This document shows, one piece after another, positions 1,382 to 47,334 of a stretch of 47,597 nucleotides of DNA. The DNA lies in NCBI GenBank assembly GCA_027859235.1, contig JAQIBE010000250.1:1-47597 (forward strand), read 5' to 3'. Below the pieces are notes generated by a model. The model worked only from the letters and a program-made list of their open reading frames with translations, was not told the origin of the DNA and made no database searches. Position 1 is the first letter of the stretch. Each line of letters starts with the position of its first letter. The translations under genes were made by a program, and so were the position numbers. Origin of the DNA: Desulfobulbaceae bacterium (GTDB lineage: Bacteria > Desulfobacterota > Desulfobulbia > Desulfobulbales > SURF-16).

Positions 1382-1486
1382 GTTTCCCTTCAGTTCAGGT
1401 TTATTGGCTGGGTCCAATGTTGTGCTATGCCTAGAATATTTTATCTCAGGCAGCTTCAGACTAAAACTTTTCCACTTATCAAGATA

Positions 1487-3292
1487 ATGTCTGAACATAC
1501 CGTACTCACTGATAGTTTTCTCAAAGATCTCACCACAAGCCCTGGCGTTTATCTCATGTATGATAAGCACAGGGTTGTGATATATGTTGGTAAGGCACGG
1601 AATCTCAAGCAAAGAGTAACGGCATACGCCCGGTTGACAGGTTCATCCCATAATAAGACCAGGGCAATGGTGGCGAAGATTAACGCCATCGAAACCATTC
1701 TCACCCGTACTGAAAAAGAGGCCCTCATTCTTGAAGCCTCCCTCATCAAAAGGCATAAACCAAAGTACAATGTTATCCTGAGGGATGATAAAAATTATCC
1801 ATATATCCGTGTGTCTGTTCAGGACGAATGGCCAAGGGTTATGATGAGCCGGCGAAAGAATCGAGATAAGGCACTCTATTTTGGCCCATATTCATCAATA
1901 TCCTCCATGTGGGATACCCTGAAACTCCTGTGGAAATTGTTTCCTCTGCACCGTTGTAAAACTGTTCGTCCCCGTAGGCGACCATGTTTAAACGGTCAGA
2001 TGGGCCAGTGTCTGGCCCCGTGTATGGGGGATGCTAACCGTGACAGGTATCTTGAAAATCTCAGAAATGTTATTCTCATCCTTGAGGGGAAGAGTAAAGA
2101 ACTCATTGCTGACCTTAAAGGTCGTATGATTGCAGCTTCACAGGGGATGCAGTTTGAACAGGCGGGGATTTATCGCGATCATATTAACGCCCTCCGTAAA
2201 ACTCTTGAAAAACAGATTGTTGCAGGGAGAAGTGATGACGAAATTGATATCTTTGGCTGCAAGCGCTTAAGGGGAAGTCTGGCTGTTTCTGTCTTGTCCA
2301 TCAGGGGGGGGCTCCTGATCGGCAACCGTAGTTTCCATTTCCCGAATGTCATTGGTGACGATGGCGAAGTCATGGGTGAGGTGCTGGAACGATATTATTT
2401 AGAACGATATATCCCTAAGTTGGTGCTCATACCTTGGGCGTTGCATGAGGGGGTCCTGGTGGATTATCTTGGTGAACTCAAACAGTCCAGGGTTGAGGTT
2501 CGTATGCCCAAACGTGGTGATGGCCGGAAGCTGACAGATATGGCTGAAATGAATGCGCAGCAGGTTTTCATTGATCGAGATAAGCGCAAGAGATCGTGGC
2601 AGTCTTTGGCAGCACAGTTACAGGAGACGTTGCAGCTTATGCATAAACCTGACCGTATCGAGTGCCTTGATATTTCAAATACAAGCGGCAAGCAGCCGGT
2701 TGGTTCCCTTGTCTGTTTTTTAGAAGGTGAAAAGGCGGGTTCAGAGTATCGCCATTATAGGATCAGATCAAAAGATACGCCTGATGATTATCAGATGATG
2801 TACGAGGTGCTTAAACGGCGGTTTGATCCTGAAAAAACTCATATCCTGCCGGAGTTACTGCTTCTCGACGGTGGTAAGGGGCAGCTGGGTATTGGTGTAC
2901 AGGTTTTGGCGGAGTTTGGTTTATCAGACCAGATAGATCTGGTTGGTATTGCCAAGCAGAAGGATGAAGAGGGTGAGAAGCTCTTCCTGCCCGGTCGCAA
3001 GGATCCTGTTATTCTCCCTGGTCATTCACCCCTGTTGCTTCTGCTCATGCAAATTCGTGATGAGTCCCATCGTTTTGGGGTTACCCTGCACCGAAAACTT
3101 CGCCAGAAAAAGACTATTTCGTCGATTCTTGAGAGCATCCCTGGAATTGGCGAGGTGAAACAACAGGCATTACTGGAGTATTTCGGCAGTGTGAAAAGGG
3201 TAAGATCCGCCACAAAAAATGAACTTGCCCGGGTTAATGGCTTTGGCAAACGAACAGCTGAAGTTGTTTACTCATTTTTGCATGATAAGTAA
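1487..3292 (+). CDS. uvrC: excinuclease ABC subunit C
   Basis: GIY-YIG motif GVYLMYDKHRVVIYVGKARNLKQRV, a UvrBC-interaction region and a C-terminal HhH (IPGIGEVKQQALLEYFGS). ATG 1487 (MSEHTV...) is preferred over the upstream start at 1427. Confidence 0.95.
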   Translation: MSEHTVLTDSFLKDLTTSPGVYLMYDKHRVVIYVGKARNLKQRVTAYARLTGSSHNKTRAMVAKINAIETILTRTEKEALILEASLIKRHKPKYNVILRDDKNYPYIRVSVQDEWPRVMMSRRKNRDKALYFGPYSSISSMWDTLKLLWKLFPLHRCKTVRPRRRPCLNGQMGQCLAPCMGDANRDRYLENLRNVILILEGKSKELIADLKGRMIAASQGMQFEQAGIYRDHINALRKTLEKQIVAGRSDDEIDIFGCKRLRGSLAVSVLSIRGGLLIGNRSFHFPNVIGDDGEVMGEVLERYYLERYIPKLVLIPWALHEGVLVDYLGELKQSRVEVRMPKRGDGRKLTDMAEMNAQQVFIDRDKRKRSWQSLAAQLQETLQLMHKPDRIECLDISNTSGKQPVGSLVCFLEGEKAGSEYRHYRIRSKDTPDDYQMMYEVLKRRFDPEKTHILPELLLLDGGKGQLGIGVQVLAEFGLSDQIDLVGIAKQKDEEGEKLFLPGRKDPVILPGHSPLLLLLMQIRDESHRFGVTLHRKLRQKKTISSILESIPGIGEVKQQALLEYFGSVKRVRSATKNELARVNGFGKRTAEVVYSFLHDK

Positions 3293-3393
3293 TTGACACC
3301 TCGCCATGGCGTTGTTACTAGTTCAGGTTCTGTTAAATAATATACAAAACTTTTTATAATTGCATTCATAACAGCAGTTCTGTGGGGATAACT

Positions 3394-4218
3394 ATGTGGG
3401 ATTATACTGAAATTGTGCAGGATCATTTCCTGAACCCGAGAAATGTCGGCGTTATTGAAGATGCCGATGGGGTGGGGGATGTTGGCTCCCTGTCCTGTGG
3501 TGATGCCTTGAAATTTTATTTTAAGCTTGGTGATGATGGTCGTATTGCTGATGCCAAATTTATGACCTTTGGGTGTGCCAGTGCCATTGCCTCTTCTTCT
3601 GCCTTAACCCTTATGGTTATGGGTAAAACCCTTGAAGAGGCGGAGAAGATTACCAATGAAGATATTGCTGATTTTCTAGGAGGTCTTCCCAAGGAAAAAA
3701 TGCATTGCTCGGTGATGGGGCGCGAAGCACTTGAGGCTTCCATTGCCAATTACCGTGGTGTGGAGTTGCCAAAGTCCGAAGGTGAGGTGGTTTGTGAATG
3801 TTTTGGTGTGACGGATGTTGATATTAAGCGCGCCATTGCTGAATCGAATTTGAAAACCCTTGACGAGGTGACGAACTTCACCAAGGCTGGTGGCGGGTGC
3901 GGAAAATGTGAAGAGCGTATTCAGGAAATCATTGATGAGACCCGTTCCTCTGCCAAGATCATTCCTTTGAAAGTTCCCCGTATGACCAATATGCAGAAAA
4001 TCAAGAAAATTGAAGATCTGTTTGAACGTGAAATTCGCCCGAATCTGAAACGGGATAGCGGCGATATTGAACTTGTGGATGTAGATGGCAATGATGTCTA
4101 TGTCTCCCTGCGTGGGGCGTGCGGCAGCTGTGCCAAATCCCAGATAACCTTGAAAGACTATGTTGAGAAGAAGCTGCGTGAAGAGGTTCTTGATTCCCTT
4201 GTTGTGAAGGAGGCTTAG
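3394..4218 (+). CDS. nifU: NifU-type Fe-S cluster scaffold (IscU-like N domain, BFD-like 2Fe-2S centre, NifU C domain)
   Basis: Scaffold cysteines in GSLSCGDALKF, FGCASAIASS and KMHCSVMG. Central CECFGVTD...GGGCGKCEERI and C-terminal GDIELVDVDGNDVYVSLRGACGSCAKS. ATG 3394 is preferred over GTG 3382. Confidence 0.9.
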   Translation: MWDYTEIVQDHFLNPRNVGVIEDADGVGDVGSLSCGDALKFYFKLGDDGRIADAKFMTFGCASAIASSSALTLMVMGKTLEEAEKITNEDIADFLGGLPKEKMHCSVMGREALEASIANYRGVELPKSEGEVVCECFGVTDVDIKRAIAESNLKTLDEVTNFTKAGGGCGKCEERIQEIIDETRSSAKIIPLKVPRMTNMQKIKKIEDLFEREIRPNLKRDSGDIELVDVDGNDVYVSLRGACGSCAKSQITLKDYVEKKLREEVLDSLVVKEA

Positions 4219-4219
4219 T

Positions 4220-5446
4220 ATGAGTGATCCGAAAACTATTTATATGGACAACAATGCCACCACCCGTGTTGCTCCAGAAGTCCTTGAGGTCATGATGCCG
4301 TATTTTTCAGAGTTGTACGGCAACCCATCCTCCATGCATCGTTTTGGTGATCAGGTTGGCAAGGCCATTGAGGTTGCACGGGGGCAGGTTGCTGATCTTC
4401 TTGGCGCAAAGCCGAGCGAGATTGTCTTTACCAGTTGCGGGACAGAGAGTGATTCCACGGCAATTTTGTCTGCTCTGCAGGCATGTCCTGATAAACGTCA
4501 TATTGTAACGTCTCGGGTTGAGCATCCAGCAGTGAAGAATCTCTGTGAGTCCCTGGATCGTTTAACAGGTCATAAACATACGATTACCTCACTCCACGTT
4601 GAGTCTGATGGCACCATTGATCTCGATAAATTTGAGAAGTCCCTTACAGAAGAAACGGCCATTATCAGTATGATGTGGGCTAATAACGAAACCGGGGTGA
4701 TTTTTCCCATCAAGAAGATGGCAGCCATAGCCAAAGCGCGAGGGATTTTATTCCATACGGATGCGGTTCAGGCTGTTGGCAAGGTCCCCATTGATCTGCA
4801 GGATGTCCCCGTGGACTTCCTGTCCCTGTCAGGCCATAAACTTCATGGCCCTAAGGGGGTTGGAGTTTTATATGTGCGCAAAGGTACACCCTATATGCCG
4901 TTTCTCATTGGTGGGCATCAAGAGGGTGGTAGGCGGGGCGGTACTGAAAATGTTACAGGTATTATCGGTCTAGGCAAGGCCTGTGAACTGGCTGGACACA
5001 TGCTGCAGACTGAAAACACGGTTGTGCGTTCCCTGCGTGATAAACTTGAAAACGGTCTGCTTGAAAAGGTTACCCACACCATATTAAATGGTCACAAGGA
5101 ATATCGCTTACCCAATACAACCAATGTGAGCTTTGAGTATATTGAGGGCGAGGCTATCCTGCTCCACCTTGATCAATTTGGTATTTGCGCCTCGTCCGGT
5201 TCTGCCTGTACATCCGGTTCGTTGGAGCCGTCCCATGTCCTGCGTGCCATGGGTGTTCCATTTACCGCAGCCCACGGTTCTATTCGCTTTAGCTTGAGTG
5301 TTTATAATACGGAAGAGGAGGTTGATTTTATCCTTGAGAAGCTCCCACCGATTATTGCTAATCTGCGGGCCATGTCCCCGTTTTGGGAAGATCGTGACAA
5401 GATTGCCGGCGGTGGATCTTGTTCAAGTTGTGGTTTCGGGAAGTAG
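4220..5446 (+). CDS. nifS: cysteine desulfurase, NifS type
   Basis: PLP-lysine motif SLSGHKLHGPKG and active-site loop SSGSACTSG. The start lies 1 nt after the nifU stop. Confidence 0.92.
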   Translation: MSDPKTIYMDNNATTRVAPEVLEVMMPYFSELYGNPSSMHRFGDQVGKAIEVARGQVADLLGAKPSEIVFTSCGTESDSTAILSALQACPDKRHIVTSRVEHPAVKNLCESLDRLTGHKHTITSLHVESDGTIDLDKFEKSLTEETAIISMMWANNETGVIFPIKKMAAIAKARGILFHTDAVQAVGKVPIDLQDVPVDFLSLSGHKLHGPKGVGVLYVRKGTPYMPFLIGGHQEGGRRGGTENVTGIIGLGKACELAGHMLQTENTVVRSLRDKLENGLLEKVTHTILNGHKEYRLPNTTNVSFEYIEGEAILLHLDQFGICASSGSACTSGSLEPSHVLRAMGVPFTAAHGSIRFSLSVYNTEEEVDFILEKLPPIIANLRAMSPFWEDRDKIAGGGSCSSCGFGK

Positions 5447-5579
5447 CATTCCAGGTATGTAGCTGTTTAGTCTTTTAGGTGTTTAGGGTGATGGTCTGGA
5501 CCTGTCTTTCATCTAATAGATTAAAGAGTGAGCTTGTAATAAAACCTATAGACTAAATAACCTAACCAAGGGTTCTAAT

Positions 5580-6536
5580 ATGATTGTTGTTCCTCCTTCC
5601 TATGAAATTATGCATGATTTAGATGAGCAGTCCCTTCCTGTGCGTATCGAGGGATGCGGTCGTCTCTGTTACAAGAGTGAAGATAAAATTACTGCAGAAT
5701 CAGCTCCCCGTTTTATTAAAACGATTCTGAAGCATGGTCATAACTCGGTCACTGAAATGGCCGTGCTCACCCTGGAGGTGATGGTTGATAAGGAGAATAT
5801 TGCCGCAAAGCTGTATAATGTTCTGCCGAAATATCTGACGATTGATACCCTTGATAAAAACATTCTGCTTGTCACGAGCTCTGTCCGTGGTTTTAGAGAA
5901 TTATATCTTGATCACGGTAATCTGAAAATTGTTAAAGCCATAACAGCGTATCTGCTCCAGCACCATCCCCTGTTTTATGAGGACATTACGCCTGAACGAG
6001 GTATTGTCAACCAGGCGGGAGTCATGGTGAAAAAGCTGTATCTCTCGGAAGTTGGTGAGCTTCCTCCGCATTTGTACGGGAGACATCGCTGGGTTGCGGT
6101 AAAATTTACCGTGAACCGGGCCGTAACCCATGAAATGGTGCGTCATCGGCCATGCAGCTTTCTGCAGGAGAGCCAGCGCTATTGTCGGTATGGAGCCGAT
6201 AAATTTGGTAATCAGGTGACATTTATTAAGCCCCTTTTTTACGCTGAGGATTCAGAAGAGTATAAACTATGGACTCAGGCCATGGAAGATACGGAGAGGT
6301 TGTATCTCAAGCTGCTTGAGACATCATCGCCCCAGGCCGCGAGAACAGTGCTGCCTAATTCCTGCAAGACCGAGTTGATTGTTTTTGCCAATCTCTTTCA
6401 ATGGGCTCATATGTTCAAATTACGGGCGACAAAGGGCGCGGATCCGTCCATGCGGGAAGTGATGATTCCTTTGTTTAAAGAGTTTAAGGAATTATTTCCT
6501 GATGTGTATGGTTCGTTTGATCTTGATTTGACCTGA
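5580..6536 (+). CDS. thyX: FAD-dependent thymidylate synthase
   Basis: ThyX signature RHRPCSFLQESQRY, plus N-terminal HGHNSVTEM. Confidence 0.9.
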   Translation: MIVVPPSYEIMHDLDEQSLPVRIEGCGRLCYKSEDKITAESAPRFIKTILKHGHNSVTEMAVLTLEVMVDKENIAAKLYNVLPKYLTIDTLDKNILLVTSSVRGFRELYLDHGNLKIVKAITAYLLQHHPLFYEDITPERGIVNQAGVMVKKLYLSEVGELPPHLYGRHRWVAVKFTVNRAVTHEMVRHRPCSFLQESQRYCRYGADKFGNQVTFIKPLFYAEDSEEYKLWTQAMEDTERLYLKLLETSSPQAARTVLPNSCKTELIVFANLFQWAHMFKLRATKGADPSMREVMIPLFKEFKELFPDVYGSFDLDLT

Positions 6537-6555
6537 TTATTTTTTTTATTTGCTG

Positions 6556-6586
6556 GCCTATCCCGTTTGGGATGGGCTTTTTTTTT
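6556..6586 (+). terminator. rho-independent terminator after thyX
   Basis: GCCTATCCC (6556-6564) pairs with GGGATGGGC (6569-6577), 9 bp including one G-U, with loop GTTT, followed by T9 (6578-6586). Confidence 0.75.
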
Positions 6587-6723
6587 ATGGGCGTGGCACG
6601 ATCTCATAGGAAAAATACGTATTTATGCGGATTGATCTCAATCTGAAAGTGGTGTAAGAACACAGGGCTGTTTTTATAGAAGAAATTAATAGTGTTATCA
6701 CAATAACCATGAGGAGTAAGAAT

Positions 6724-8490
6724 ATGGCGTTAGACCCAACTAAACATGCGGACTGGGAAATAGCAGAAGATGCAGAAAAGAACATGAAGACCATTTACGA
6801 AGTTGCTGAGCAACTTGGTATCGAGGACAAGGAGCTCCTTCCTCACGGTCATTACTTCGGCAAACTAGATTACCGTAAGATTCTTGAACGTACTAAAGAT
6901 CGTCCGGATGGAAAATATGTTGATGTAACTGCTATTTCTCCAACACCGCTTGGTGAAGGGAAGTCCACCTGTGTTATGGGTCTTGTTCAGGGTCTTGGTA
7001 AGCGTGGCAAGTCTGTTGTTGGTGCGGTTCGCCAGCCATCAGGCGGCCCAACCATGAATATCAAGGGCTCTGCTGCCGGTGGTGGTCTTGCCCAGTGTAT
7101 CCCGCTTACACCTTTTTCTCTCGGTTTTACCGGTGATATCAACGCGATCATGAACTCCCATAACCTGGGTATGGTAGCACTCACTTCAAGAATGCAACAT
7201 GAGGCCAATAAGACCGATGCTCAATTAAAAGAGATTGGCCTGAAAAGACTTGATATTCACCCAAAACGAGTTGAATTTGGCTGGATTATTGATTTCTGTG
7301 CCCAAGCCTTGAGAGATATTACCATTGGTCAAGGACCTGGTAAGCTTGATGGCTTTACCATGAAGTCCAAATTTGCCATTGCGGTAAGTTCTGAGATTAT
7401 GGCAATCCTTTCCATCACCCGCGATCTCAAAGACATGCGTGAGCGTATTGGTAAGATTGTTGTGGCCTATGATCGTCAAGATCGCCCAGTCACCACCGAA
7501 GATCTTGACGTTGCCGGCGCCATGACCGCCTGGATGGTTGAAGCACTCAACCCAAATATGATGCAAACCCTTGAAGGTCAGCCTGTTCTGGTTCATGCCG
7601 GACCTTTTGCAAATATCGCCATCGGTCAGTCCTCTGTTATTGCTGACCGTGTTGGTCTTAAAATTGCCGATTACAATGTTACCGAGTCCGGCTTTGGTGC
7701 TGATATCGGTTTTGAGAAGTTCTGGAACCTCAAATGCCGTTACTCCGGCCTCAAGCCGAACTGTGCCGTTGTTGTTGCCACGATCCGTGCCCTTAAATGT
7801 CACGGTGGTGCACCAATTCCTGTACCGGGTCGGCCAATGCCTAAAGAGTATGATGGCGAGAACGTTGGTTGGGTTGAAAAGGGTTGTAAGAACCTTGTTC
7901 ATCACATCGAGACGGTCAAAAAAGCGGGTATCAACCCTGTTGTTTGTATCAACGCCTTCTACACCGATACCGATGCTGAGATTGCTGCGGTTCGTCGCAT
8001 CGGTGAGGCAGCTGGTGCCCGTGTTGCCCTTTCCCGTCACTGGGAGCTGGGTGGTGCCGGAGCCCTCGAATTCGCTGACGCCGTTGTTGATGCCTGTGAA
8101 GAGCCTAATGAGTTTAAATTCCTCTATGATCTGAGTATGCCTCTTGATGATCGTATCGATATTATTGCTAAAGAAGTATATGGCGCTGATGGCGTTTCCT
8201 ATACCCCAGAAGCTAAGGTTAAGCTTGAGCGCTTGAAGGCCGATCCAGAGATCAGTGAGCTTTCCACCTGTATGGTTAAGACTCACCTGTCTCTTTCTCA
8301 TGATCCTAAGCTCAAAGGTGTGCCTAAGGGGTGGACATTACCAATCAGTGATATCCTCACCTACAAGGGCGCGGGTTTTGTTGTACCTGTTGCCGGCGCC
8401 ATCAGCCTCATGCCTGGTACTGGTTCTAATCCAGCGTATCGTCGCGTTGATGTTGACGTTGAGACCGGTAAGATTAAAGGTGTATTTTAG
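6724..8490 (+). CDS. fhs: formate-tetrahydrofolate ligase
   Basis: FTHFS nucleotide loop [11 protein letters not shown] and full-length collinearity with FTHFS. AGGAG lies upstream of ATG 6724 (MALDPTKH...). Confidence 0.96.
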
Positions 8491-8595
8491 TTCATTAGAA
8501 ATTGTTTTTTAAAACAATTTCGTGAATGTAGTTATCCCCATCTAATTTATGTGGGGCTAGATTGTAAGAATTACATCCTGAAGTTTATTTGCAAA

Positions 8596-8631
8596 GGGCC
8601 ATGTGGAGAAAATCCACAGGGCCCTTTTTTT
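8596..8631 (+). terminator. rho-independent terminator downstream of fhs
   Basis: GGGCCATGTGGA / TCCACAGGGCCC stem (one mismatch) with loop GAAAA, then T7. A separate AT-rich hairpin (8498-8521) with no T-run lies directly after the stop codon. Confidence 0.7.
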
Positions 8632-8727
8632 GTTTGAGGCTAGGTGAAAAAAGTTGTTATGATAATAAATGCTTAAATTGTCCGTGCCCTTAATACCTCA
8701 AAAGATACTCGAGCCCCTTTCCTCCCT

Positions 8728-10947
8728 ATGACTTCTGCGAATCCAAACAAACAAAAATCCTCCCTGTCGGCCTCTGTTAAGGATCAATCTGGTGCAGGTA
8801 AATTAAAGATTGGTGAAATTCTTCGTAAAGAGGGGCAGATCAACTCCACCATGTTGGCCCAAGCCGTGAAGATTCAAAAGAAAAATGGGAGGAGATTGTC
8901 AAGTATCTTGCTGTCGCTTGGTCATATTGAAGAGGATACGGTGAGTAAAATTCTCAGCAGGGTGATGAATTTTACAAGTGTCGTTATTGAAGATCAGCAT
9001 CCCAGTGAAGATGTTCGACAGCTTGTCAGCGCTGAACTCGCCATGAAGTATCTCATTTTTCCAATACGTAAAACCAACAATACCATCATGATCGCCATGA
9101 GTGAGCCTACGGATACGCAGGCCATTGATGAGATTCAGTTTGAGTTGAAGGCAGGCCTTGATGTAAATGTCGCCACTGAGCGGGATATTGCTGATGCGAT
9201 CCTCAAGTATTATGGAATATCTGCAGAGGAGCATCGCGAGTTACTTGGTTTAAGTGCACAGGCCGATGAGGAGGAGGAAGAGGAGGTTGCAAATATTGCT
9301 GATTTTGGCTCCCTTGCCTCTGAAGTTGCCGATAATATGGCCATTGAGACCACAGATATGGATGAAGGGCCTGAAGAATTTTCAGCCTCGGATGCCCCCA
9401 TCATCAAATTGGTTAATGGTATTTTAATTAAGGCAGTGCAGGATGGTGTTTCCGATGTTCACATTGAGCCCTATGAGAAAAATTTACAGATACGCTATCG
9501 TCTTGACGGTTCCCTGTATAAATCCATGAACCTGCCTGTGGGTATTAAAAATGCACTCACCTCTCGAGTTAAAATTTTAGCTACGCTGGATATTACGGAA
9601 AGAAGGGTCCCGCAGGATGGTCGTATCAAGATGCGTATTGGTCGTAATAAGGTGGTGGACTTTCGTGTTTCAACCCTGCCGACCCTGTGGGGTGAATCCA
9701 TTGTCTTGCGGATCTTGGATAAGTCTTCCTTGAATGTTGATTTAACCAAACTAGGTTTTGAAGTTGAGACCTTTGAGGCCTTAAAACGAAGTCTTGAAAA
9801 GCCGCAAGGGCTTCTTCTGGTTACTGGCCCCACGGGTTCTGGGAAGACGGTAACCCTGTACTCGGCCTTAAATTCTTTGAATAAAGAAGATACCAAGATT
9901 CTGACGGCTGAAGATCCTGTGGAGTTTAACTTTAAAGGTATCAATCAGGTTAATATTCACCAGGAGGTGGGGATGACCTTCCCTAAGGCCCTTAAGGCCT
10001 TCCTGCGTCAAGACCCTGATATTATCATGGTTGGTGAAATTCGTGATATGGAAACGGCAGAGATTGCTATAAAGGCTGCCATGACGGGTCACCTTGTGTT
10101 TTCAACCCTGCATACAAACGATGCTGCTGCAACTATTGGTCGTTTGGTTGATATTGGTATTCCTCCCTTCATGTTGTCGTCTTCTCTTTCCATGGTGCTC
10201 GCTCAACGACTAGGTCGCCGCTTATGTAAAAATTGTAAATCTCCAATTGATCGTCCAGCCGATGATGTTTTATTGGGTTATGGTTTTACTGAGGCGCTTC
10301 TTGCAAAAGAGTTTCAACTCTTTGAGCCTAAGGGGTGCGGGGTATGTAATGGCGGTGGGTATAAGGGGCGGGTTGGGTTTTTTGAGCTCATGGAGGTGAC
10401 CGATGATGTGGCCACTGCAATTAATGCCGAGGTTCCCGAGGATCAGCTTCGAAAAGTTGCTATTCAGTCAGGGATGCACCCCTTACGCTATGCGGCACTT
10501 TTGAAGGCGAGTCGGGGGGTGACTGCTATCCGGGAAGTGCTTAAGACAACGGTTATCAATGAAGAAAGTCTTCCAGCTTATCTGGTCAATCCTGAGGTGG
10601 AAGTCTACCTGGATGGCGAAGATATAATCTATCAGGGCAATAAGGATATTGATTTCTTCAAACTCCTGCAAGGCACTGTTATGGTGGTAAAAGATGGTAA
10701 ACGTATTGCTGATATTAAAGAGCCTGGTGAGTATTTTGGTGAGATGTCAGCAATTTCAGGTGAACCACGAACAGCATCCATTGTTGCTAGGGGTAAAGCG
10801 AAGGTGAAACGTTTTCCTGGTGATAAAATGATGGAGATTATTGAAAAGCATCCTAATGTTGCCAAGCATCTCTTCAGGACACTCGTAATGCGTCTTGGCC
10901 AAACCAGTGATATTATTGTAAAGCTTGCTGAAAATGCCAGACGGTAA
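8728..10947 (+). CDS. PilB/GspE/MshE-family secretion ATPase with N-terminal MshEN-like domain and C-terminal cyclic-nucleotide-binding domain
   Basis: Walker A GPTGSGKT, Walker B DPDIIMVGEIRD, His box TGHLVFSTLHTN and tetracysteine CKNCKSP...GCGVCNGGGYKGR. The N-terminus has tandem 24-residue MshEN-like motifs. The C-terminus has the CAP-family cNMP motif GEYFGEMSAISGEPRTASIVA. Confidence 0.85.
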   Translation: MTSANPNKQKSSLSASVKDQSGAGKLKIGEILRKEGQINSTMLAQAVKIQKKNGRRLSSILLSLGHIEEDTVSKILSRVMNFTSVVIEDQHPSEDVRQLVSAELAMKYLIFPIRKTNNTIMIAMSEPTDTQAIDEIQFELKAGLDVNVATERDIADAILKYYGISAEEHRELLGLSAQADEEEEEEVANIADFGSLASEVADNMAIETTDMDEGPEEFSASDAPIIKLVNGILIKAVQDGVSDVHIEPYEKNLQIRYRLDGSLYKSMNLPVGIKNALTSRVKILATLDITERRVPQDGRIKMRIGRNKVVDFRVSTLPTLWGESIVLRILDKSSLNVDLTKLGFEVETFEALKRSLEKPQGLLLVTGPTGSGKTVTLYSALNSLNKEDTKILTAEDPVEFNFKGINQVNIHQEVGMTFPKALKAFLRQDPDIIMVGEIRDMETAEIAIKAAMTGHLVFSTLHTNDAAATIGRLVDIGIPPFMLSSSLSMVLAQRLGRRLCKNCKSPIDRPADDVLLGYGFTEALLAKEFQLFEPKGCGVCNGGGYKGRVGFFELMEVTDDVATAINAEVPEDQLRKVAIQSGMHPLRYAALLKASRGVTAIREVLKTTVINEESLPAYLVNPEVEVYLDGEDIIYQGNKDIDFFKLLQGTVMVVKDGKRIADIKEPGEYFGEMSAISGEPRTASIVARGKAKVKRFPGDKMMEIIEKHPNVAKHLFRTLVMRLGQTSDIIVKLAENARR

Positions 10948-11371
10948 ATAATTTCATATTTTCCGCAACTTCTGTTTTTAATTTCAAATAAGTCCTGTTG
11001 AATTTTCCTGTTAAGCGTGCTTATGTATTACTGTCGGTTCGCGATAGGTATAACTACTTGTACCTTAAAAAGAAAGCAGTTATGCGAAGTTAAAGCTCTG
11101 CTAAATTACAATTGGCTGTGCTAAAAATTGTTGCAAAAAAGGCGCAACTTTACTAGTCTTGGTTGGTTTATTTTTTAGATTATACCCAACTGGTGTCCCG
11201 TTTTGTTCTGAGCCTGTTAATGTTTGCTAAACATGGTAGGGTACACTCGCTTGGGCTTCGTCTTGTTTGGGGTGGTTGTTTTTTGCGCCAGCCAACTGTT
11301 TTAGACTTCATTTAGGTTGGTTGTTTTAAGGCCAATCTATCGTAAATATTTATGTGATTTAAGGAGATTCA

Positions 11372-12256
11372 ATGAGCGCCAAGATTATCAGCGGGACCGA
11401 AACAGCCAAAGCGATTAGGGAAGAGTTAAAGCTAGAAGTTGCAGAACTTACAGAGAAACATAATATTGTTCCTGGTCTTGTGACTATTCTGGTGGGTGAA
11501 GATCCTGCATCACAATCTTATGTTTCAGCAAAAAATAAGACGGCTCATGCCCTGGGTATTCATTCTGAGCAGGTTACCCTGGATGCTGCTACCCCGGAAG
11601 AAGCTCTTCTGACCCTTGTTGACAAGTATAATAAGGACGATAAAATTAACGGTATTCTTGTTCAGCTCCCCCTGCCGAAGCATATTAATGAGGCAAAGGT
11701 GCTGTATGCCATTGATCCGGATAAGGATGTCGATGGTTTTCACCCTGTAAACATCGGCAAGATGGTTCTCGGTGAAGAATGTTTCCTTCCCTGTACTCCA
11801 CACGGTATCCTGGAGCTTCTCATTCGTTCCGGTGTTGAGACGTCTGGTGCCGAGGTTGTTATTGTCGGCCGTTCCAATATCGTTGGCAAGCCAATGGCCA
11901 ATCTCATGCTGCAAAAACGTGCGGGTGGCAATGCCACTGTTACTCTTTGCCATACCAGGACAAAAGATATTGATTTTCACCTCAAACGTGCTGATATTAT
12001 CATTGCCGCCGTTGGTGTTGCGAACATGATCAGCGCGGATCAAGTTAAAGAGGGTGTTGTGGTTATTGATGTCGGTGTGAATCGTATTGGTCAGGCAGCG
12101 AACGGCAAGGCTCTTCTGGCGGGTGATGTTGACTTTGTTTCCGTGAAGGAAAAGGCCGCAGCAATTACCCCTGTTCCAGGTGGTGTCGGCCCTATGACCA
12201 TTACGATGCTGATGAAAAACACCGTTCAGGCTGCACGTATGGCCAATGGCCTTTAA
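11372..12256 (+). CDS. folD: bifunctional methylene-THF dehydrogenase / methenyl-THF cyclohydrolase
   Basis: VGRSNIVGKPMANLM and TPVPGGVGPMT motifs. AAGGAG RBS lies upstream. Confidence 0.96.
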   Translation: MSAKIISGTETAKAIREELKLEVAELTEKHNIVPGLVTILVGEDPASQSYVSAKNKTAHALGIHSEQVTLDAATPEEALLTLVDKYNKDDKINGILVQLPLPKHINEAKVLYAIDPDKDVDGFHPVNIGKMVLGEECFLPCTPHGILELLIRSGVETSGAEVVIVGRSNIVGKPMANLMLQKRAGGNATVTLCHTRTKDIDFHLKRADIIIAAVGVANMISADQVKEGVVVIDVGVNRIGQAANGKALLAGDVDFVSVKEKAAAITPVPGGVGPMTITMLMKNTVQAARMANGL

Positions 12257-12322
12257 GTACGCGCATTTAGTTTAATCTGAAATTTTCATTTTCTCAAAAA
12301 TACAATGTTGAGGGTAATATAG

Positions 12323-14308
12323 ATGGCTTCTTCAAGAAATGAATGTGAAGGATGTGCAGATATGACCTGTGCTTCTTCTAAATTGGTTCTTGCTCAGGAC
12401 ATAGCAAAGGACACCAAGACTGCCTATGACCGTGTCAAGGCCCGTGGCATGGCAGCATGTCTTTTTGGGCAAAAAGGTACCTGCTGCAAGAATTGCAACA
12501 TGGGACCTTGTCAGATTATTGATGGCGTTGAGTCCATGGTCGGTGTCTGTGGTGCTACTGCGGATACGGTTACGGCCCGCAACTTTGCCCGTACCGTTGC
12601 TGCGGGTTCAGCAGCCCACGGCGATCATGCCCGTGAGATGGTTAAGGGTTTTATTGAAACTGCAAAGGGAAATACGCCCCACGAGATTAAGGACGAGGTC
12701 AAACTGCATAGTCTGGCTGCGGTTTACGGCGTTGACGTTGAAGGCCGCGACAAGAACGACATTGCCCTTGAACTTGGCGAAAAGGCCCTTGCTGATTTCG
12801 GCAGTCAAAATGATGAACCTCTGGCCATGCTGAAGCGTGCCCCTGCGGAACGTCAAAAAATCTGGAAGAAACTTGGTGTTGAGCCCCGCGGTATAGACCG
12901 CGAGGTCGTTGAGCTTATGCATCGTACCCATATGGGTGTTGATCAGCAGTATGAGAACATCACCAATCAGGCTTCACGCTGTGCTTTATCTGATGGTTGG
13001 GGCTCCTCCATGCTCTCCACTGAACTGACTGATATCATGTTCGGCACCCCGGTTCCACGGCGGTCCGTTGTTGATCTTGGTGTGCTTCAAAAAGATCAGG
13101 TTAATGTGGCTGTCCATGGTCATGAGCCGCTCCTGGCGGAATCGCTCTGTATTGCAGCCCAGGATCAGGAGATGCTCGACCTTGCCAAGGCGCAGGGTGC
13201 CAAGGGTATCAACCTTGTCGGTGTCTGTTGTACGGGAAATGAAATTCTCATGCGCCGCGGAATTCCGGTTGCGGCGGGTTTTATCCAGCAGGAAATTACC
13301 ATTGCAACCGGCGCCATTGAAGCCATGGTGGTTGACGTGCAATGTGTGATGCAATCACTCGGTGAGATGACACGGAATCTGCATACCGATATCATCACCA
13401 CCAACTATCGTGCGAAGATGCCGTTTGCTATTCATATCCCCTTTGATGAGCATGCTGCCATGGCCTCTGCCAAGGAAATTCTCACCAAAGCCATTATGAA
13501 TTACAAGAAACGCGGGAAGTTCTATATTCCTGAAGAGAAAAAGCTGGATGTTGTTGTCGGTTTCTCCCATGAAACCATTAACCGGATGCTCGGCGGTCGT
13601 TTCCGTGCCAGTTATCGTCCTTTGAATGATAACATTATTAATGGCCGTATCCGTGGTGTCGGTATCATTGTTGGTTGTGATAACTTCAAACTCAATGACG
13701 ATGCCCATGAGATTATTGCCAAAGAACTCATTAAGAATAATATTCTTGTTCTTGCCACTGGCTGTGCTGCCACAGCGCTTGGCCGTGCTGATCTTATGAA
13801 TCCTGAGGCCGCCAAATATTGCGGTCCGGGACTTGCCGAGGTTTGTGAAACCGTTGGTATGCCGCCTGTACTGCACATGGGTTCCTGTGTTGACAACAGC
13901 CGTCTCCTTATTGCCGCTACAGCAATGGTTAATGAAGGTGGCCTTGGTGATGATATCAGTGATCTGCCGGCTGTTGGTACCGCACCGTTATGGATGAGTG
14001 AAAAGGCGGTTGCCATTGGTCAATATTTTGTTGCCAGTGGTGCCCAGGTTATCTTCCAGTCTCTTCCGACAGATGGTTCCAAGGTCTTTGATAAGTATCT
14101 CAAAGAAGATATGATGGAGACCTATGGTGCCGTGTGGAATGTTGAGGCCGATCCACTGAAAATTGCAAAATCCATTATTGCTAAAATTGAAGAAAAACGT
14201 GAAGCCTTAGGCATCAACAAAAAGCAGGACCGTGTTTTGTTTGATATGGAAATGCGTCGCGACCAGGAAGGTGGCGAACTTAAGGGTGTCGGCTGTAGTG
14301 TAACTTAA
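12323..14308 (+). CDS. cooS: anaerobic Ni-dependent carbon monoxide dehydrogenase catalytic subunit
   Basis: N-terminal D/B-cluster cysteines GQKGTCCKNCNMGPCQI, then VHGHEP, CCTGNE and GSCVDNSR. Sits next to acsB/acsC. Confidence 0.93.
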   Translation: MASSRNECEGCADMTCASSKLVLAQDIAKDTKTAYDRVKARGMAACLFGQKGTCCKNCNMGPCQIIDGVESMVGVCGATADTVTARNFARTVAAGSAAHGDHAREMVKGFIETAKGNTPHEIKDEVKLHSLAAVYGVDVEGRDKNDIALELGEKALADFGSQNDEPLAMLKRAPAERQKIWKKLGVEPRGIDREVVELMHRTHMGVDQQYENITNQASRCALSDGWGSSMLSTELTDIMFGTPVPRRSVVDLGVLQKDQVNVAVHGHEPLLAESLCIAAQDQEMLDLAKAQGAKGINLVGVCCTGNEILMRRGIPVAAGFIQQEITIATGAIEAMVVDVQCVMQSLGEMTRNLHTDIITTNYRAKMPFAIHIPFDEHAAMASAKEILTKAIMNYKKRGKFYIPEEKKLDVVVGFSHETINRMLGGRFRASYRPLNDNIINGRIRGVGIIVGCDNFKLNDDAHEIIAKELIKNNILVLATGCAATALGRADLMNPEAAKYCGPGLAEVCETVGMPPVLHMGSCVDNSRLLIAATAMVNEGGLGDDISDLPAVGTAPLWMSEKAVAIGQYFVASGAQVIFQSLPTDGSKVFDKYLKEDMMETYGAVWNVEADPLKIAKSIIAKIEEKREALGINKKQDRVLFDMEMRRDQEGGELKGVGCSVT

Positions 14309-14376
14309 TTGCTGCGGATTGATGGAAAGGGTGTTTACGCACCCCTTATTAATAAATGAACTAAGGTAAATCGCCG

Positions 14377-17097
14377 ATGAAATCGGGTAGTCGTTTAGAA
14401 CGTATATTAAAAGCGGGTCATTTTGCTGTGACAGGTGAGCTTGGACCGCCTAAATCCAGTGATCCAGAGGTGGTTCGCCAGAAGGCTCGGATACTCAAAG
14501 GGCATGTTGATGCGGTAAATATTACTGATTGTCAGACAGCCATTGTCCGCATGTCTTCTATCTCTGCGGGTCTCATAACCCAACAGGAAGGTCTTGAGCC
14601 TGTAATCCAGATGACTTGCCGTGATCGTAACCGTATTGGTATGCAGTCCGATATTCTCGGTGCCTCAGCCCTCGGTCTAAAGAACCTTCTCTGTCTCACT
14701 GGTGATCATCAGAAGTTTGGTAATCACCCCGGTTCAAAAGGCGTCTTTGATATGGACTCTATTCAAATGCTCGGTATGGTCAAGACCATGCGGGATGAGA
14801 AGGAGTTCCAATGTGGTGAGGCCATTAAGGGTGACGCTCCTAAATTGTTCCTGGGCTGTGCTGCGAATCCCTTTGCCTATCCCTTTGAGTTCAGGGCCAA
14901 ACGTCTTGCCAAAAAAGTGGCTCAGGGTGCTGACTTTGTGCAGACCCAGATTATCTATAATGTAGATAAATTTGCGAAATTCATGGAAATGGTTCGCGAT
15001 CTTGGTCTTCACGAGAAATGTCATATCCTGGCCGGTGTTACCCCGCCTAAATCATTAGGTATGGCTCGGTACATGCAGAAGTTTGTGCCCGGTATGGACG
15101 TTACAGATGAAGTGATTCAGAGGTTGCAGGACGCGAAGGACAAGCAGGAAGAAGGGATTCAGATCTGTGTTGATATCATCAATCAGATCAAGGAAATTGA
15201 AGGTGTTGCCGGTGCCCATGTCATGGCTATTGGCTGGGAAGAGGCTGTGCCTGAAATTATCAGCCGCGCCGGTCTTTCCAGCCGCCCCGTGCTTGACGAT
15301 GATCTTCCTGCTGTTGAGAAGGCTAGAGAGTCCATTGTTGTGACCACGGCCCCGCTTGATACAGCCAAGGCTGATGCGATTCTTGCGGAAGCCAAAGCGC
15401 ACGCAAAACGAATTGTTGCTGAGGCACAGGCTGAAGCGGATAAGTTTGATCAGGCCAAAGCCCATGCGGTACAACTGCTTGCAGATGCTAAAGCTTCTTC
15501 AACCCCAAATATTGAAAATACAGTTAATCAAGATATAGAAGCAGGAGAACATGAGATGAATGAACAAGAACGGTTACTTGCGCTTGAATCTGTGACCAAT
15601 GGATTAAATGCATTGAAAGCTGCCTTTAATCTGACAGATGAGCAATTTGAAGCATTATCAAGCTTTGCCGGGGCTCAAAACATCCTTGGGAAGGTTCCCA
15701 ATGCAGCTTCCCCAGTTGCACCCGCTTCAACATCGGCTGCGGTTGCCGCTCCTGTTGAAACTGTAAGTGCACCAGCTGCAACAGCCGCTCCTGCAGCCGC
15801 CTCCATTGAAAAGACACCGCGAACACCACAAACGGCTGAGGATCTTCCTCTAGAGGTTGTGAAACGTTATGAAGCCTTAATGGAAAGGGCAGGGGGTGTT
15901 TTGCCCAGTGCGTTTACTGTTGATGATTCAGCTGAGCAAGAAACTGCCGCTGCACCTGCGCAAGCAGCAGAAGTTGAGGCTGCACCAGTAGAAACAGCGA
16001 AACCTGCCGCCCCAGCAGTGAAAAAAACTAAAGCAAAATCTGCCGCACCAGCAGTGAAAAAAGCGAAAGCAAAACCGGCGGCTTCTAAGGCCCCTGTCGC
16101 CGGTGATGCCGGTTCCTTTGCTATAGAGACAACGCCGCTTGCTGAACGTGCTTCAAAGGTTCCTGTCACGGCCTACACGGCTAAATACACGGGTGCTATT
16201 CGTGAAACCACCCTTGGTAACGGCGACAATACCATCACCATCGGTGGTGAGTCGACAATGCCTTTCCAACTCTTTGAAGGGAGTATGGCCAATAAGCCAC
16301 GTATCGCCATGGAAGTTGTTGATTCCGGCACGGATGGATGGCCTGAAACCATTACCCGTCATTTTGCAGACGTTCTGGATAACCCCGTAGCCTGGGCCCA
16401 AAAATGTGTTGCTGAGTATGGTGCCGATGCGATTTGTGTCTCCCTGACCTCAACGGATCCAAACGGCATGAACAATGGGGCTGATGCCGCTGCCAAAACA
16501 GCTGCCGCAGTTATTGATGCCGTTGACGTGCCTGTCATTGTCTGGGGTTGTGAAAACGCTGAAAAAGATACTGATACCCTGCGTGAATTGACCTCACTCA
16601 TCGGTGATAAGAAGGTTTGTCTGGCGCCGCTTTCTGAGGCAAACTACCGCTCCCTGGGTGCCACCGCAATGGCGTTTCAGCATCCGATTGTTTCGGCTTC
16701 CCCCATTGATGTAAACCTTGCCAAGCAGCTTAACATCCTCATGGAAAATCTGGGTGTGAGTTTGAACAATGTTATGATCGATCCGTCTGTCGGCGCACTT
16801 GGCTATGGTATTGAGTACACCTATTCTGTTATGGAGCGTATTCGGCAAGCGGCCTTAATGCAGCAGGACGAGAAGTTACAGGTACCTATTATTTGTAATC
16901 TTGGTCGCGAGGTTTGGAAGGCTAAGGAATGTCGACTGCCTTCTGATGCAATCATCGGTGATCAGGAAACACGCTCCCTCATGATGGAAGCCATTACTGC
17001 AAGTTGTATGCTCATGGCGGGCGGTGAGCTGATGATCATGCGTCATCCTAAGGCTGTTAGTCTTACCCGCGCTATGATCGATGGTTTAATGGCGTAA
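14377..17097 (+). CDS. fusion protein: MetF-type methylenetetrahydrofolate reductase domain, Ala/Pro/Lys-rich linker, then corrinoid Fe-S protein small subunit (AcsD/CdhD)
   Basis: Uninterrupted 906-codon ORF. Residues ~1-300 carry MTHFR-family features (GELGPPKS, VNITDCQ, QMTCRDRNR...LLCLTGDH). Residues ~590-906 are collinear with AcsD (AWAQKCVAEYGADAICVSL, IDPSVGALGYGIEYTYSVMERIR). The region in between is low-complexity. Confidence 0.85.
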   Translation: MKSGSRLERILKAGHFAVTGELGPPKSSDPEVVRQKARILKGHVDAVNITDCQTAIVRMSSISAGLITQQEGLEPVIQMTCRDRNRIGMQSDILGASALGLKNLLCLTGDHQKFGNHPGSKGVFDMDSIQMLGMVKTMRDEKEFQCGEAIKGDAPKLFLGCAANPFAYPFEFRAKRLAKKVAQGADFVQTQIIYNVDKFAKFMEMVRDLGLHEKCHILAGVTPPKSLGMARYMQKFVPGMDVTDEVIQRLQDAKDKQEEGIQICVDIINQIKEIEGVAGAHVMAIGWEEAVPEIISRAGLSSRPVLDDDLPAVEKARESIVVTTAPLDTAKADAILAEAKAHAKRIVAEAQAEADKFDQAKAHAVQLLADAKASSTPNIENTVNQDIEAGEHEMNEQERLLALESVTNGLNALKAAFNLTDEQFEALSSFAGAQNILGKVPNAASPVAPASTSAAVAAPVETVSAPAATAAPAAASIEKTPRTPQTAEDLPLEVVKRYEALMERAGGVLPSAFTVDDSAEQETAAAPAQAAEVEAAPVETAKPAAPAVKKTKAKSAAPAVKKAKAKPAASKAPVAGDAGSFAIETTPLAERASKVPVTAYTAKYTGAIRETTLGNGDNTITIGGESTMPFQLFEGSMANKPRIAMEVVDSGTDGWPETITRHFADVLDNPVAWAQKCVAEYGADAICVSLTSTDPNGMNNGADAAAKTAAAVIDAVDVPVIVWGCENAEKDTDTLRELTSLIGDKKVCLAPLSEANYRSLGATAMAFQHPIVSASPIDVNLAKQLNILMENLGVSLNNVMIDPSVGALGYGIEYTYSVMERIRQAALMQQDEKLQVPIICNLGREVWKAKECRLPSDAIIGDQETRSLMMEAITASCMLMAGGELMIMRHPKAVSLTRAMIDGLMA
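16004..16075 (+). repeat. 36-nt tandem duplication inside the MetF~AcsD linker
   Basis: ctgccgccccagcagtgaaaaaaactaaagcaaaat (16004-16039) is followed directly by ctgccgcaccagcagtgaaaaaagcgaaagcaaaac (16040-16075). They encode AAPAVKKTKAK / AAPAVKKAKAK. Confidence 0.9.
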
Positions 17098-17135
17098 TGG
17101 ATAGTTTGTCTAAGTAATTATTAAAGAGGAATATA

Positions 17136-19343: not shown

Positions 19344-19371
19344 ATAATAGAGTTTACAGTTGCCAGTTTAT

Positions 19372-19450
19372 GGTTAACGGTTTGAGGATCGTATCTTGAT
19401 AAGATATTTTCTTGAGCCGGCAATCGTAAACCTTAAACCGTAAACCTTAA
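19372..19450 (+). repeat. acsB-acsC spacer structure: 14-nt tandem repeat complementary to an upstream arm
   Basis: cgtaaaccttaa occurs at 19425-19436 and 19439-19450. GGTTAACGGTTTGAGG (19372-19387) can pair with 19431-19446: 14 of 16 Watson-Crick, one G-U, one mismatch. An inner 6-bp hairpin TATCTT-GAT-AAGATA lies at 19392-19406. Confidence 0.6.
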
Positions 19451-19491
19451 TATAATTAATTAGAAATTAAATTTATATAGAGGCTAAAAAA

Positions 19492-46927: not shown

Positions 46928-46992
46928 AGGCCGCCTCTTCAGTGAACGACAATGTCCATTGCCCTTACATCACCCTTTCCGTGAGATAAGAC

Positions 46993-47334
46993 ATGAAGTT
47001 TCTGCAAGTATTTCCTTTTATAATAAGCAGCCTCCTCCTTGGGGCTCATTTTTACAGGGCAGGAATATTACCCCTTGTTTTCATCTCCCTGCTCCTGCCC
47101 CTACTCTTACTCATCCGCACCAACGCAGCTCTTCGTCTAGCCCAGGCCTGTCTTGTGCTCGGTTCACTGGAGTGGCTGAGAACAATCTATGTCTTAGCCA
47201 TTGAACGGCAGCAGCTCGGCCAATCCTGGACACGACTGGCAATCATTCTTGGCGGCGTCGCCCTTTTTACCGCATTATCCAGCCTCCCCCTGTCGCGGGT
47301 CATGAAAGAGATAAAGGACACAGGGCAACGATGA
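46993..47334 (+). CDS. small integral membrane protein (3 predicted TM helices)
   Basis: 113-aa ORF with an ATG start and three hydrophobic stretches. No family recognised. Confidence 0.5.
   Translation: MKFLQVFPFIISSLLLGAHFYRAGILPLVFISLLLPLLLLIRTNAALRLAQACLVLGSLEWLRTIYVLAIERQQLGQSWTRLAIILGGVALFTALSSLPLSRVMKEIKDTGQR

Follow-up and report, generated by a model that had tools for sequence, protein, structure and literature searches.

A PilB-type pilus ATPase with a fused, predicted cyclic-nucleotide-binding domain in the Desulfobulbia

What is a secretion-type ATPase with apparent binding modules for two different nucleotide second messengers doing between fhs and folD, in the middle of a set of carbon-fixation genes? 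The question is raised by a stretch of 47,597 nt (47.6 kb) from a Desulfobulbaceae bacterium (contig JAQIBE010000250.1), which is called the window below, always at its full length. An initial annotation, made from the DNA letters, had described the ATPase as an orphan inserted between fhs and folD, and as a hexamer gated both by cyclic di-GMP (c-di-GMP) and by a cyclic nucleoside monophosphate (cNMP). The analysis described here concerns the gene in question, pilB-CNB, and its product. Judged by sequence, PilB-CNB is the standard form of PilB across the Desulfobulbia, with a related form in the Desulfobacterales. It is probably the Desulfobacterota form of the hexameric type IVa pilus extension ATPase, carrying a permanently fused C-terminal cyclic-nucleotide-binding (CNB) domain and regulated in cis by cNMPs.

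Scans of the translated open reading frame (ORF) with Pfam and NCBIfam profiles found a three-domain product, with an MshEN-type N-terminus, a T2SSE ATPase core and a C-terminal cNMP_binding domain, as the initial annotation had proposed (coordinates in Table 1). The T2SSE match has an E-value of 1.8e-134, and the match to PF05157 one of 4.6e-15; PF05157 is now called 'MshEN' in Pfam and is the old T2SSE_N, that is, the MshEN_C subdomain. The match to cNMP_binding (PF00027; E 1e-13) scores 51.5 bits against a gathering threshold of 27.5 and covers profile positions 3-89 of 89. Among the NCBIfam models, the PilB equivalog TIGR02538 gives 741.1 bits over aa 27-609, its cutoff being 675.65, and covers profile positions 1-563 of 564. 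The 53-residue model NF053729 ('c-di-GMP_motif') is passed marginally: its cutoff is 38 bits, and aa 27-78 reach 42.3. There are also weak matches to CRP and Pat. Conservation was read from two alignments, one of 121 sequences (the window protein and its 120 best homologues) and one of 65 fusion sequences that reaches down to 51% overall identity and includes Desulfobacterales. The 65-sequence alignment was also the basis of a full-length AlphaFold model of the monomer, with a mean predicted local distance difference test score (pLDDT) of 77.

The ATPase core is complete in the translation, as claimed earlier: the Walker A motif, the Asp box TAEDPVEF, the Walker B motif DPDIIMVGEIRD, the His box TGHLVFSTLHTN and the four cysteines of the Zn motif are all present, and all are invariant in the 65-sequence alignment. 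The top sequence match in the PDB is Myxococcus xanthus PilB (3jc8; E 2.9e-157, aa 27-608), with Geobacter PilB next to it among the best. The match to these type IVa PilB proteins is full-length (about aa 26-611) and includes the MshEN N-terminus, whereas matches to GspE/EpsE start only at aa 166 or 219 and are weaker; the GspE model TIGR02533 scores 552 bits, under its cutoff of 630. When the core of the AlphaFold model is compared by Foldseek with Geobacter PilB (5tsh/5tsg), the target TM-score is 0.87-0.91 and the root-mean-square deviation about 3 Å, at 52% identity. On this sequence and fold comparison, the core and N-terminal domains are orthologous to Myxococcus and Geobacter PilB. The domain order MshEN_N - MshEN_C - N2D - C-terminal domain (CTD) is the same as in the type IVa PilB proteins of M. 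xanthus and of Geobacter metallireducens and G. sulfurreducens (3jc8, 5tsg/5tsh, 5zfr, 6olj), and the tetracysteine Zn site is common to both. The window protein differs in having about 130 extra C-terminal residues, which form the CNB domain, and its gene is not clustered with pilT, pilC or pilA.

The added C-terminal domain looks canonical in fold and apparently competent to bind a ligand. In CNB domains, the Gly-Glu pair of the phosphate-binding cassette (PBC) holds the ribose 2'-OH, and the Arg-[Ser/Thr]-Ala element holds the cyclic phosphate. The cassette of the window protein reads F670-G671-E672-M-S-A-I-S-G-E-P-R681-T682-A683. Residues G671, E672, R681 and A683 are invariant in both alignments, and position 682 is nearly always Ser or Thr. 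A profile search with the domain matched PKG, the regulatory subunit of PKA (PKA-R), HCN, CRP and a PycTIR CNB domain, in each case with the cassette aligned. In this region the full-length model reaches a pLDDT of 82-89 and predicts a beta-roll, whose strands lie between 623 and 696, then a short B-helix (698-707) and a 30-residue C-helix (709-738). The top matches in a Foldseek search with a model of the isolated domain were all CNB proteins (SthK, CRP, Vfr, PKA-R, HCN and PKG); that model, built on 14 aligned sequences, is of low quality (pLDDT 62) and was used for the fold search only, the secondary structure being taken from the full-length model. The C-terminal helix, the equivalent of the CNB alpha-C hinge or lid helix, has P709, R722 and L723 invariant in the 65-sequence alignment.

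The segment that joins the two halves of the protein is itself highly conserved. This connector, 20 residues from the last ATPase helix to the beta-roll, is nearly invariant among the 121 sequences and belongs to the most conserved segments of PilB-CNB. T608, E613, P616, Y618 and L619 are invariant across the Desulfobulbia and Desulfobacterales fusions in the 65-sequence alignment, and the model is of low confidence at aa 612-616. Such conservation is not the behaviour of a passive tether, and the connector is likely to be a minimal N3A/alpha-A element that could couple ligand-induced motion to the ATPase CTD. The linker that follows MshEN_C is different: its mean identity to the family is 48% in the 121-sequence alignment, and its pLDDT falls below 50 at aa 176-191 and 203-220.

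The architecture is widespread. All 120 of the best homologues in a collection of 5.8 billion proteins have the same three domains, with lengths of 716-746 aa and identities of 66-98%. Those with names belong to Desulfobulbaceae, Desulfurivibrionaceae, Thiovibrio or Desulfobia, or carry broad labels (Deltaproteobacteria, Thermodesulfobacteriota), and the NCBI pipeline labels the best homologues 'type IV-A pilus assembly ATPase PilB'. When the species genomes of GTDB were scanned with a profile of the C-terminal region, at least 547 loci were confirmed; the best 80 of these are all of the Desulfobulbia type, and the closest among the matches listed are metagenome-assembled genomes (MAGs) of Desulfurivibrionaceae, the family to which the window itself probably belongs. 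In 83 of 84 loci the CNB domain is immediately preceded by the ATPase core; the exception (L008) is cut by a contig edge. The search for the same architecture in other genomes was thus productive in both Desulfobulbia and Desulfobacterales, and the notion of an odd gene 'inserted' at this place has to be given up, since this is the ordinary form of the gene.

The nearest PilB that is not a fusion (P0122) comes from Nitrospinae and is 50% identical. A search seeded with it yielded many Desulfobacterales proteins with the same fusion, for example from Desulfobacula and Desulfobacteraceae, and further fusions at 42-45% identity were found among 50% clusters. In a neighbour-joining tree of ATPase cores, which is rough, has no support values and mislabels some fusions, most fusions fall into two adjacent clades with a few non-fusions among them. 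The fusions are thus concentrated in one region of this rough PilB tree, which is not used here to infer either a single or a multiple origin. One protein stands apart in the tree: P0146 (645 aa), found in the 50%-cluster search, combines GSPE_N1E and T2SSE with a C-terminal cNMP_binding domain, and its position outside the main fusion clades hints that a CNB domain was joined to a secretion ATPase independently in this case.

The N-terminal module has the layout of a c-di-GMP receptor. Two 24-residue segments are separated by the five-residue spacer noted in the initial annotation, and this 24 + 5 + 24 arrangement opens the sequence of a secretion ATPase at its very N-terminus, just as in MshE (5htl; PMC5013675) and in c-di-GMP-binding PilB (PMC6957770), the latter exemplified by Chloracidobacterium PilB (Dye and Yang 2020; PMC6957770). 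The MshEN_N region matches the N-domain of Vibrio cholerae MshE (5htl) with an E-value of 4.6e-13, against 1e-3 for the non-binder XpsE, and the AlphaFold model predicts the four helices at 28-34, 40-53, 57-63 and 71-79. When a relaxed form of the pattern of Wang et al. 2016 is applied, motif 1 fits at 9 of 11 constrained positions and motif 2 at 8 of 11, which qualifies the earlier claim of agreement with the published pattern. Motif 1 reads K-I-G...G...L...V...Q, with Arg and Gln at two normally hydrophobic positions, and motif 2 reads R-L-S...G...V...L...V. Across the 121 sequences, conservation covers the R/K, L/I and G positions, the glycines of the turns and Q50. The NF053729 score is 42 bits for the window protein, 56 for a Desulfobacterales fusion and 67 for Nitrospinae PilB.

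Taken together, these features suggest how the motor could be controlled. A 3',5'-cyclic mononucleotide (cAMP or cGMP) would bind the phosphate-binding cassette, and binding would shift the hinge and the long C-helix, as it does in PKA-R, Epac, HCN, SthK and CRP. The rigid connector would relay this shift to the C-terminal domain of the ATPase, and ATP turnover, the conformation of the hexamer or its docking to PilC or PilM would be switched in consequence. Like its counterparts in MshE and in other PilB proteins, the MshEN module would probably contribute an input from c-di-GMP, and two second messengers would then be integrated post-translationally in one protein. Gating of PilB-CNB by two messengers is in this sense an inference from its domains.

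Parts of this scheme have close parallels. In proteins regulated in cis by a CNB domain (PKG and PKA-R, SthK, HCN and the mycobacterial acetyltransferase Pat), a beta-roll, cassette and C-helix are likewise fused to an effector, and the cassette of PKG and PKA-R aligns residue for residue with that of the window protein; what differs is the effector, here a hexameric secretion ATPase of the PilT/VirB11 class. Another parallel is the control of pili by cAMP and Vfr/CRP (Pseudomonas Pil-Chp-CyaB-Vfr; PMC11656802), where a cNMP likewise sets pilus output through a CNB domain, as it would here. Vfr and CRP are among the nearest structural matches of the C-terminal domain of the window protein. With Vfr, however, the target of cAMP is transcription, reached by way of a DNA-binding protein distinct from the motor, whereas in PilB-CNB the CNB domain is part of the motor, which would imply direct control after translation. 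As a tentative extension, it is possible that PilB-CNB is the first motor of the secretion superfamily (PilT/VirB11 class) to be gated in cis by a cNMP and that, with MshEN, it integrates c-di-GMP and cAMP/cGMP to set the assembly of PilA filaments across the Desulfobulbia and Desulfobacterales, lineages that disproportionate sulfur or oxidise sulfide and among which is the cable-bacteria family.

Several observations weigh against a cNMP-regulated, two-messenger pilus motor. The c-di-GMP pattern is not followed at two key sites of motif 2, which in the window protein begins RLS rather than the RLG of MshE and, in the family, ends in Val, Leu or Ile rather than Gln. The residue equivalent to Gly40 is Ser in 74 of the 121 sequences and Gly in the other 47. 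The residue equivalent to Gln61 is hydrophobic (L, V or I) in 102 of 121, with Val in the window protein, and is Gln in just 5. In V. cholerae MshE, G40I and G11L leave poor, if any, c-di-GMP binding, and G40L and Q61V are among the changes listed for the non-binding XpsE (PMC5013675). A change from Gly to Ser is mild and the contact is made through the backbone, so that c-di-GMP binding may survive; binding by the MshEN module of the window protein is somewhat favoured on these sequence comparisons. As for the pilus, orthology is what points to a partnership of PilB-CNB with a type IVa machine. No T2SSF/PilC, secretin, PilM/N/O or pilin domain was found in any ORF of at least 150 aa in the window, in agreement with the initial annotation, and no pilC, pilT, pilM-Q or pilin gene lies within 10 kb on either side of pilB-CNB at six loci with Pfam-labelled gene tables. 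The relative placement of the ATPase and CNB domains is unreliable in the monomer model (predicted template modelling score 0.48). Finally, the pilB-folD spacer holds no convincing terminator (the best hairpin with a T-run has -7.4 kcal/mol), and some read-through from pilB into the Wood-Ljungdahl genes may occur.

Three other explanations deserve consideration. The ATPase might drive another machine of the type IV filament kind, such as a secretion pseudopilus similar to the one found in type II secretion systems, with the CNB domain tuning secretion. This would suit a solitary gene with no local tie to a type IVa pilus system; pilB-CNB stands alone at every locus examined. The description of the gene as an orphan holds in this local sense only, and related cable bacteria do have type IVa pilus genes, in scattered positions (PMC10580974). 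The role of PilA filaments in the cable-bacteria group is uncertain, with secretion as one option (PMC10580974), the score of the GspE model is also high, and a GspE-type fusion of N1E, T2SSE and cNMP domains is known elsewhere in the form of P0146. PilA has been reported as the most abundant protein in cable bacteria, and a survey of the literature on the pili of Desulfurivibrio and cable bacteria found no domain-level account of PilB. However, only the PilB equivalog model is passed at its trusted cutoff, and the best matches over the full length are type IVa PilB proteins, those to GspE/EpsE being partial and weaker, which makes a different filament machine unlikely. It is also rather unlikely, and a little more so, that the C-terminal domain has kept the CNB fold and lost cyclic-nucleotide sensing, serving instead in oligomerisation, in partner binding or in the recognition of another ligand, as in CooA, FNR, CprK and trypanosome PKA. 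Many members of the CNB superfamily do have ligands other than cNMPs (PMC2246266; PMC10959531), the long C-helix resembles the dimerisation helix of CRP, and there is no cyclase gene in the window. Against this, the ribose and phosphate contacts G671-E672 and R681-[S/T]682-A683 are invariant or conservatively replaced across two classes, and these are the cassette positions that are typically lost in members that do not bind cNMPs. In the table of Kannan et al., for instance, the NtcA cassette is divergent and the cassette arginine is variable in the AAA_Atpase group (PMC2246266).

The remaining explanation returns to the place of the gene. If the ATPase were functionally tied to the Wood-Ljungdahl or one-carbon (C1) pathway, it might be co-expressed with folD-cooS-acs and its output might track autotrophy. 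The local order does hold well among assessable Desulfobulbia loci, to as little as about 63% identity in the scanned C-terminal region: 49 of 56 have fhs immediately upstream of pilB, and 62 of 70 have folD downstream. The uvrC-nifUS-thyX and cooS-acs flanks are usually present in the same order. Furthermore, the window has no strong terminator after pilB and before folD, and a hairpin with a T-run was found at this place in only 21 of 65 relatives. Yet the whole uvrC-nifU-nifS-thyX-fhs-pilB-folD-cooS block is syntenic, including genes that have nothing to do with C1 metabolism, which argues for a general conservation of gene order. A strong terminator (a hairpin with a T-run) insulates fhs from pilB in 55 of 57 related loci, compared with 5 of 57 shuffled controls, and the spacer before folD has a median of 326 bp among the loci. 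At loci with a different order, the genes beside pilB appear on inspection by eye to be housekeeping genes of no related function, resembling hypD/hypE, phosphofructokinase (pfk), lpxC and a glycosyltransferase. Fusion loci of the Desulfobacterales type lie elsewhere altogether: the three that were examined (L085-L087) are next to queH/maf or proS, none is beside Wood-Ljungdahl genes, and two of them adjoin queH, a gene with an Ala_racemase_N domain and maf. Because the Desulfobacterales orthologues are located elsewhere, a link to carbon fixation is unlikely, and the specific idea of a C1-linked motor is very improbable. The setting in a carbon-fixation cluster, as first described, is therefore real and conserved as an order within the Desulfobulbia, but it is not shared by the Desulfobacterales orthologues, and the fhs-pilB-folD position is best read as gene order inherited within the Desulfobulbia. 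A PilB with a fused CNB domain, probably regulated by cNMPs, is the reading retained in what follows.

The combination of domains had been put forward as uncharacterised, and the literature searched agrees with this impression. In full-text searches, no paper turned up in which PilB, T2SSE or GspE is joined to a cNMP-binding domain. Vfr is the only route by which cAMP enters a 2024 review of PilB regulation (PMC11656802), and the MshEN paper lists fusions to ATPases, glycosyltransferases and others, with no cNMP domain among them (PMC5013675). The CNB census of Kannan et al. 2007 contains no fusion to a secretion or pilus ATPase, its ATPase-linked groups being only a histidine-kinase-like family and an AAA/ABC-type group (PMC2246266). 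Public annotation does show the architecture, since hundreds of entries come with precomputed Pfam domains. It appears to be uncharacterised. Binding of c-di-GMP by PilB and MshE and control of pili by cAMP and Vfr are already known, whereas no description of a CNB domain built into PilB was found.

Pilus extension motors are known to be controlled by c-di-GMP (through MshEN or through FimX and PilZ partners), by protein cofactors and by transcription (cAMP-Vfr). If the present reading is correct, the CNB domain in PilB would be a direct and fast switch by which cAMP or cGMP acts on pilus extension, and together with MshEN it would make PilB-CNB a rare case of a single protein that integrates two nucleotide messengers. 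The carriers belong to a large and environmentally important group of organisms that disproportionate sulfur, oxidise sulfide or are related to cable bacteria, and the switch would bear on how attachment, motility or PilA-dependent secretion is regulated in them.

Table 1. Features of the pilB-CNB locus, with positions in the window and amino-acid (aa) numbers of the product
Feature	Position	Strand	Basis
pilB-CNB gene	8728..10947 (stop codon included)	+	ORF listing and translation, 739 aa; TIGR02538 741 bits
MshEN_N four-helix bundle, motifs aa 27-50 and 56-79, spacer KKNGR	8806..8964	+	NF053729, model
MshEN_C / T2SSE_N subdomain (aa 87-165)	8986..9222	+	Pfam PF05157
Acidic, poorly conserved linker (aa 166-219)	9223..9384	+	low model confidence, low family identity
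Secretion-superfamily ATPase core, N2D + CTD (aa 220-605)	9385..10542	+	Pfam T2SSE, Foldseek
Walker A GPTGSGKT (aa 367-374)	9826-9849	+	translation
Tetracysteine Zn motif C500/C503/C537/C540	10225-10347	+	translation
Conserved connector T608-x4-E613-S-L-P616-A-Y618-L619-V-N-P-[DE] (aa 606-625)	10543..10602	+	alignments
CNB beta-roll (aa 626-708)	10603..10851	+	Pfam cNMP_binding
Phosphate-binding cassette (PBC) FGEMSAISGEPRTASI	10735-10782	+	alignment, profile search
Long C-terminal helix (aa 709-738), putative equivalent of CNB alpha-C hinge/lid helix	10852..10944	+	model; alignment
Intrinsic terminator of fhs (hairpin 8593-8627 + U7)	8593..8631	+	folding
Candidate promoter TTGAGG-18-TATGAT, TG extension	8634..8663	+	consensus scan, 9/12 matches
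pilB-folD spacer, 424 bp	10948..11371	.	no Rfam element, no strong terminator

The transcription signals around pilB-CNB are unequal at its two ends. The terminator of fhs, which had been placed at 8596-8631, proved genuine, with slightly extended limits and a folding energy of -23.7 kcal/mol (z = -4.55; none of 200 shuffles as stable). A simple terminator scan missed this hairpin on account of one mismatch in the stem, and it was replaced by direct folding and a custom scan for a hairpin with a T-run. The candidate promoter downstream of the terminator is a weak match by consensus only, and promoter-like sites in the region are not above the number expected by chance. The proposal that pilB-CNB is a transcription unit of its own is consequently well supported at the 5' boundary, by the fhs terminator, and not supported at the 3' boundary, where the spacer offers only the weak hairpin mentioned above.

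The spacer itself contains no ORF of 60 aa or more, and its DNA is conserved in the two closest relatives only. A riboswitch or other RNA element in the spacers was considered and ruled out, in that an Rfam search of the whole window at gathering thresholds gave no match; in particular, there is no ZTP/THF riboswitch before folD. The corresponding spacer of Thiovibrio (L001, 12234-12569) holds a minus-strand gene of 111 aa with no Pfam match, which is absent from the window.

A second kind of sensor fusion occurs in the same phylum. Proteins of the GAF-MshEN-T2SSE type, annotated as 'GspE/PulE family' and found in Desulfobacterales (for example P0388), resemble PilB-CNB in joining a sensor domain to a PilB-like ATPase; the sensor is an N-terminal GAF domain there and a C-terminal CNB domain here, and the two are 37% identical. 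The label 'GspE/PulE family protein' spans a large family of this GAF type. In one Desulfobacterales MAG (L086), positions 7550-9859 encode a 769-aa protein with GAF, MshEN and T2SSE domains, and the gene of the CNB-PilB orthologue follows directly downstream. With TIGR02538 the CNB fusion of this locus reaches 734 bits, above the cutoff, and its GAF neighbour 512 bits, below it. A search for a second PilB in Desulfobulbia that started from the GAF-PilB paralogue found no Desulfobulbia among the named top-120 matches, which were of the Desulfobacterales type or unclassified. As a probe for a second PilB in Desulfobulbia, P0122 was set aside when it proved to be from Nitrospinae, and its search turned up the Desulfobacterales fusions instead. 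Many other proteins (P0124, P0125, P0127, P0134 and others) are about 1000 aa long and contain two complete T2SSE domains in tandem, and one such tandem protein also has T2SSF (PilC-type) domains. These could be real PilB-PilT/PilC fusions or merged gene calls.

The order of genes in the window is mscS, uvrC, nifU, nifS, thyX, fhs, pilB-CNB, folD, a carbon monoxide dehydrogenase gene (cooS type), a MetF-CdhD fusion, acsB, acsC/cdhD, a selenocysteine (Sec) formate dehydrogenase and housekeeping genes. About 12 of these form a block, uvrC-nifU-nifS-thyX-fhs-pilB-folD-cooS-metF/cdhD-acsB-acsC (1427-20847), whose order and strand are kept across most of the sampled Desulfobulbia (L001-L084). Genes for DNA repair, for Fe-S assembly and for thymidylate synthesis stand in it beside a pilus motor and the Wood-Ljungdahl pathway.

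Toward the right end of the window, two ORFs on opposite strands, 44873-45766 (-) of 296 aa and 46689-47204 (+) of 171 aa, remain without a Pfam match at E <= 1e-5; as the 171-aa ORF overlaps an rlmN-like gene at that gene's end, it may not be genuine. Just beyond the syntenic block, the region 20964-25067 (+) appears as ORFs of 825 aa and 537 aa, which are one frame split by an in-frame TGA at 23439-23441. The context of this codon is NNIDHCARL*HAPTVASL, which we take to be the motif around the active-site selenocysteine of formate dehydrogenase. Toward its N-terminus the product has 2Fe-2S, 4Fe-4S and GltD-like pyridine-nucleotide oxidoreductase domains, and the homologue in L004 is called as a single gene of 1375 aa. 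From its sequence, the product looks like a Sec-containing formate dehydrogenase fused to an NAD(P)H module. Within the block, 14377-17097 (+) encodes a protein of 906 aa in which methylenetetrahydrofolate reductase (MTHFR; aa 6-299) is fused to a CdhD/AcsD-like domain (aa 611-851). Loci of Thiovibrio and other Desulfobulbia have an MTHFR-CdhD fusion of 883-898 aa at this same place.

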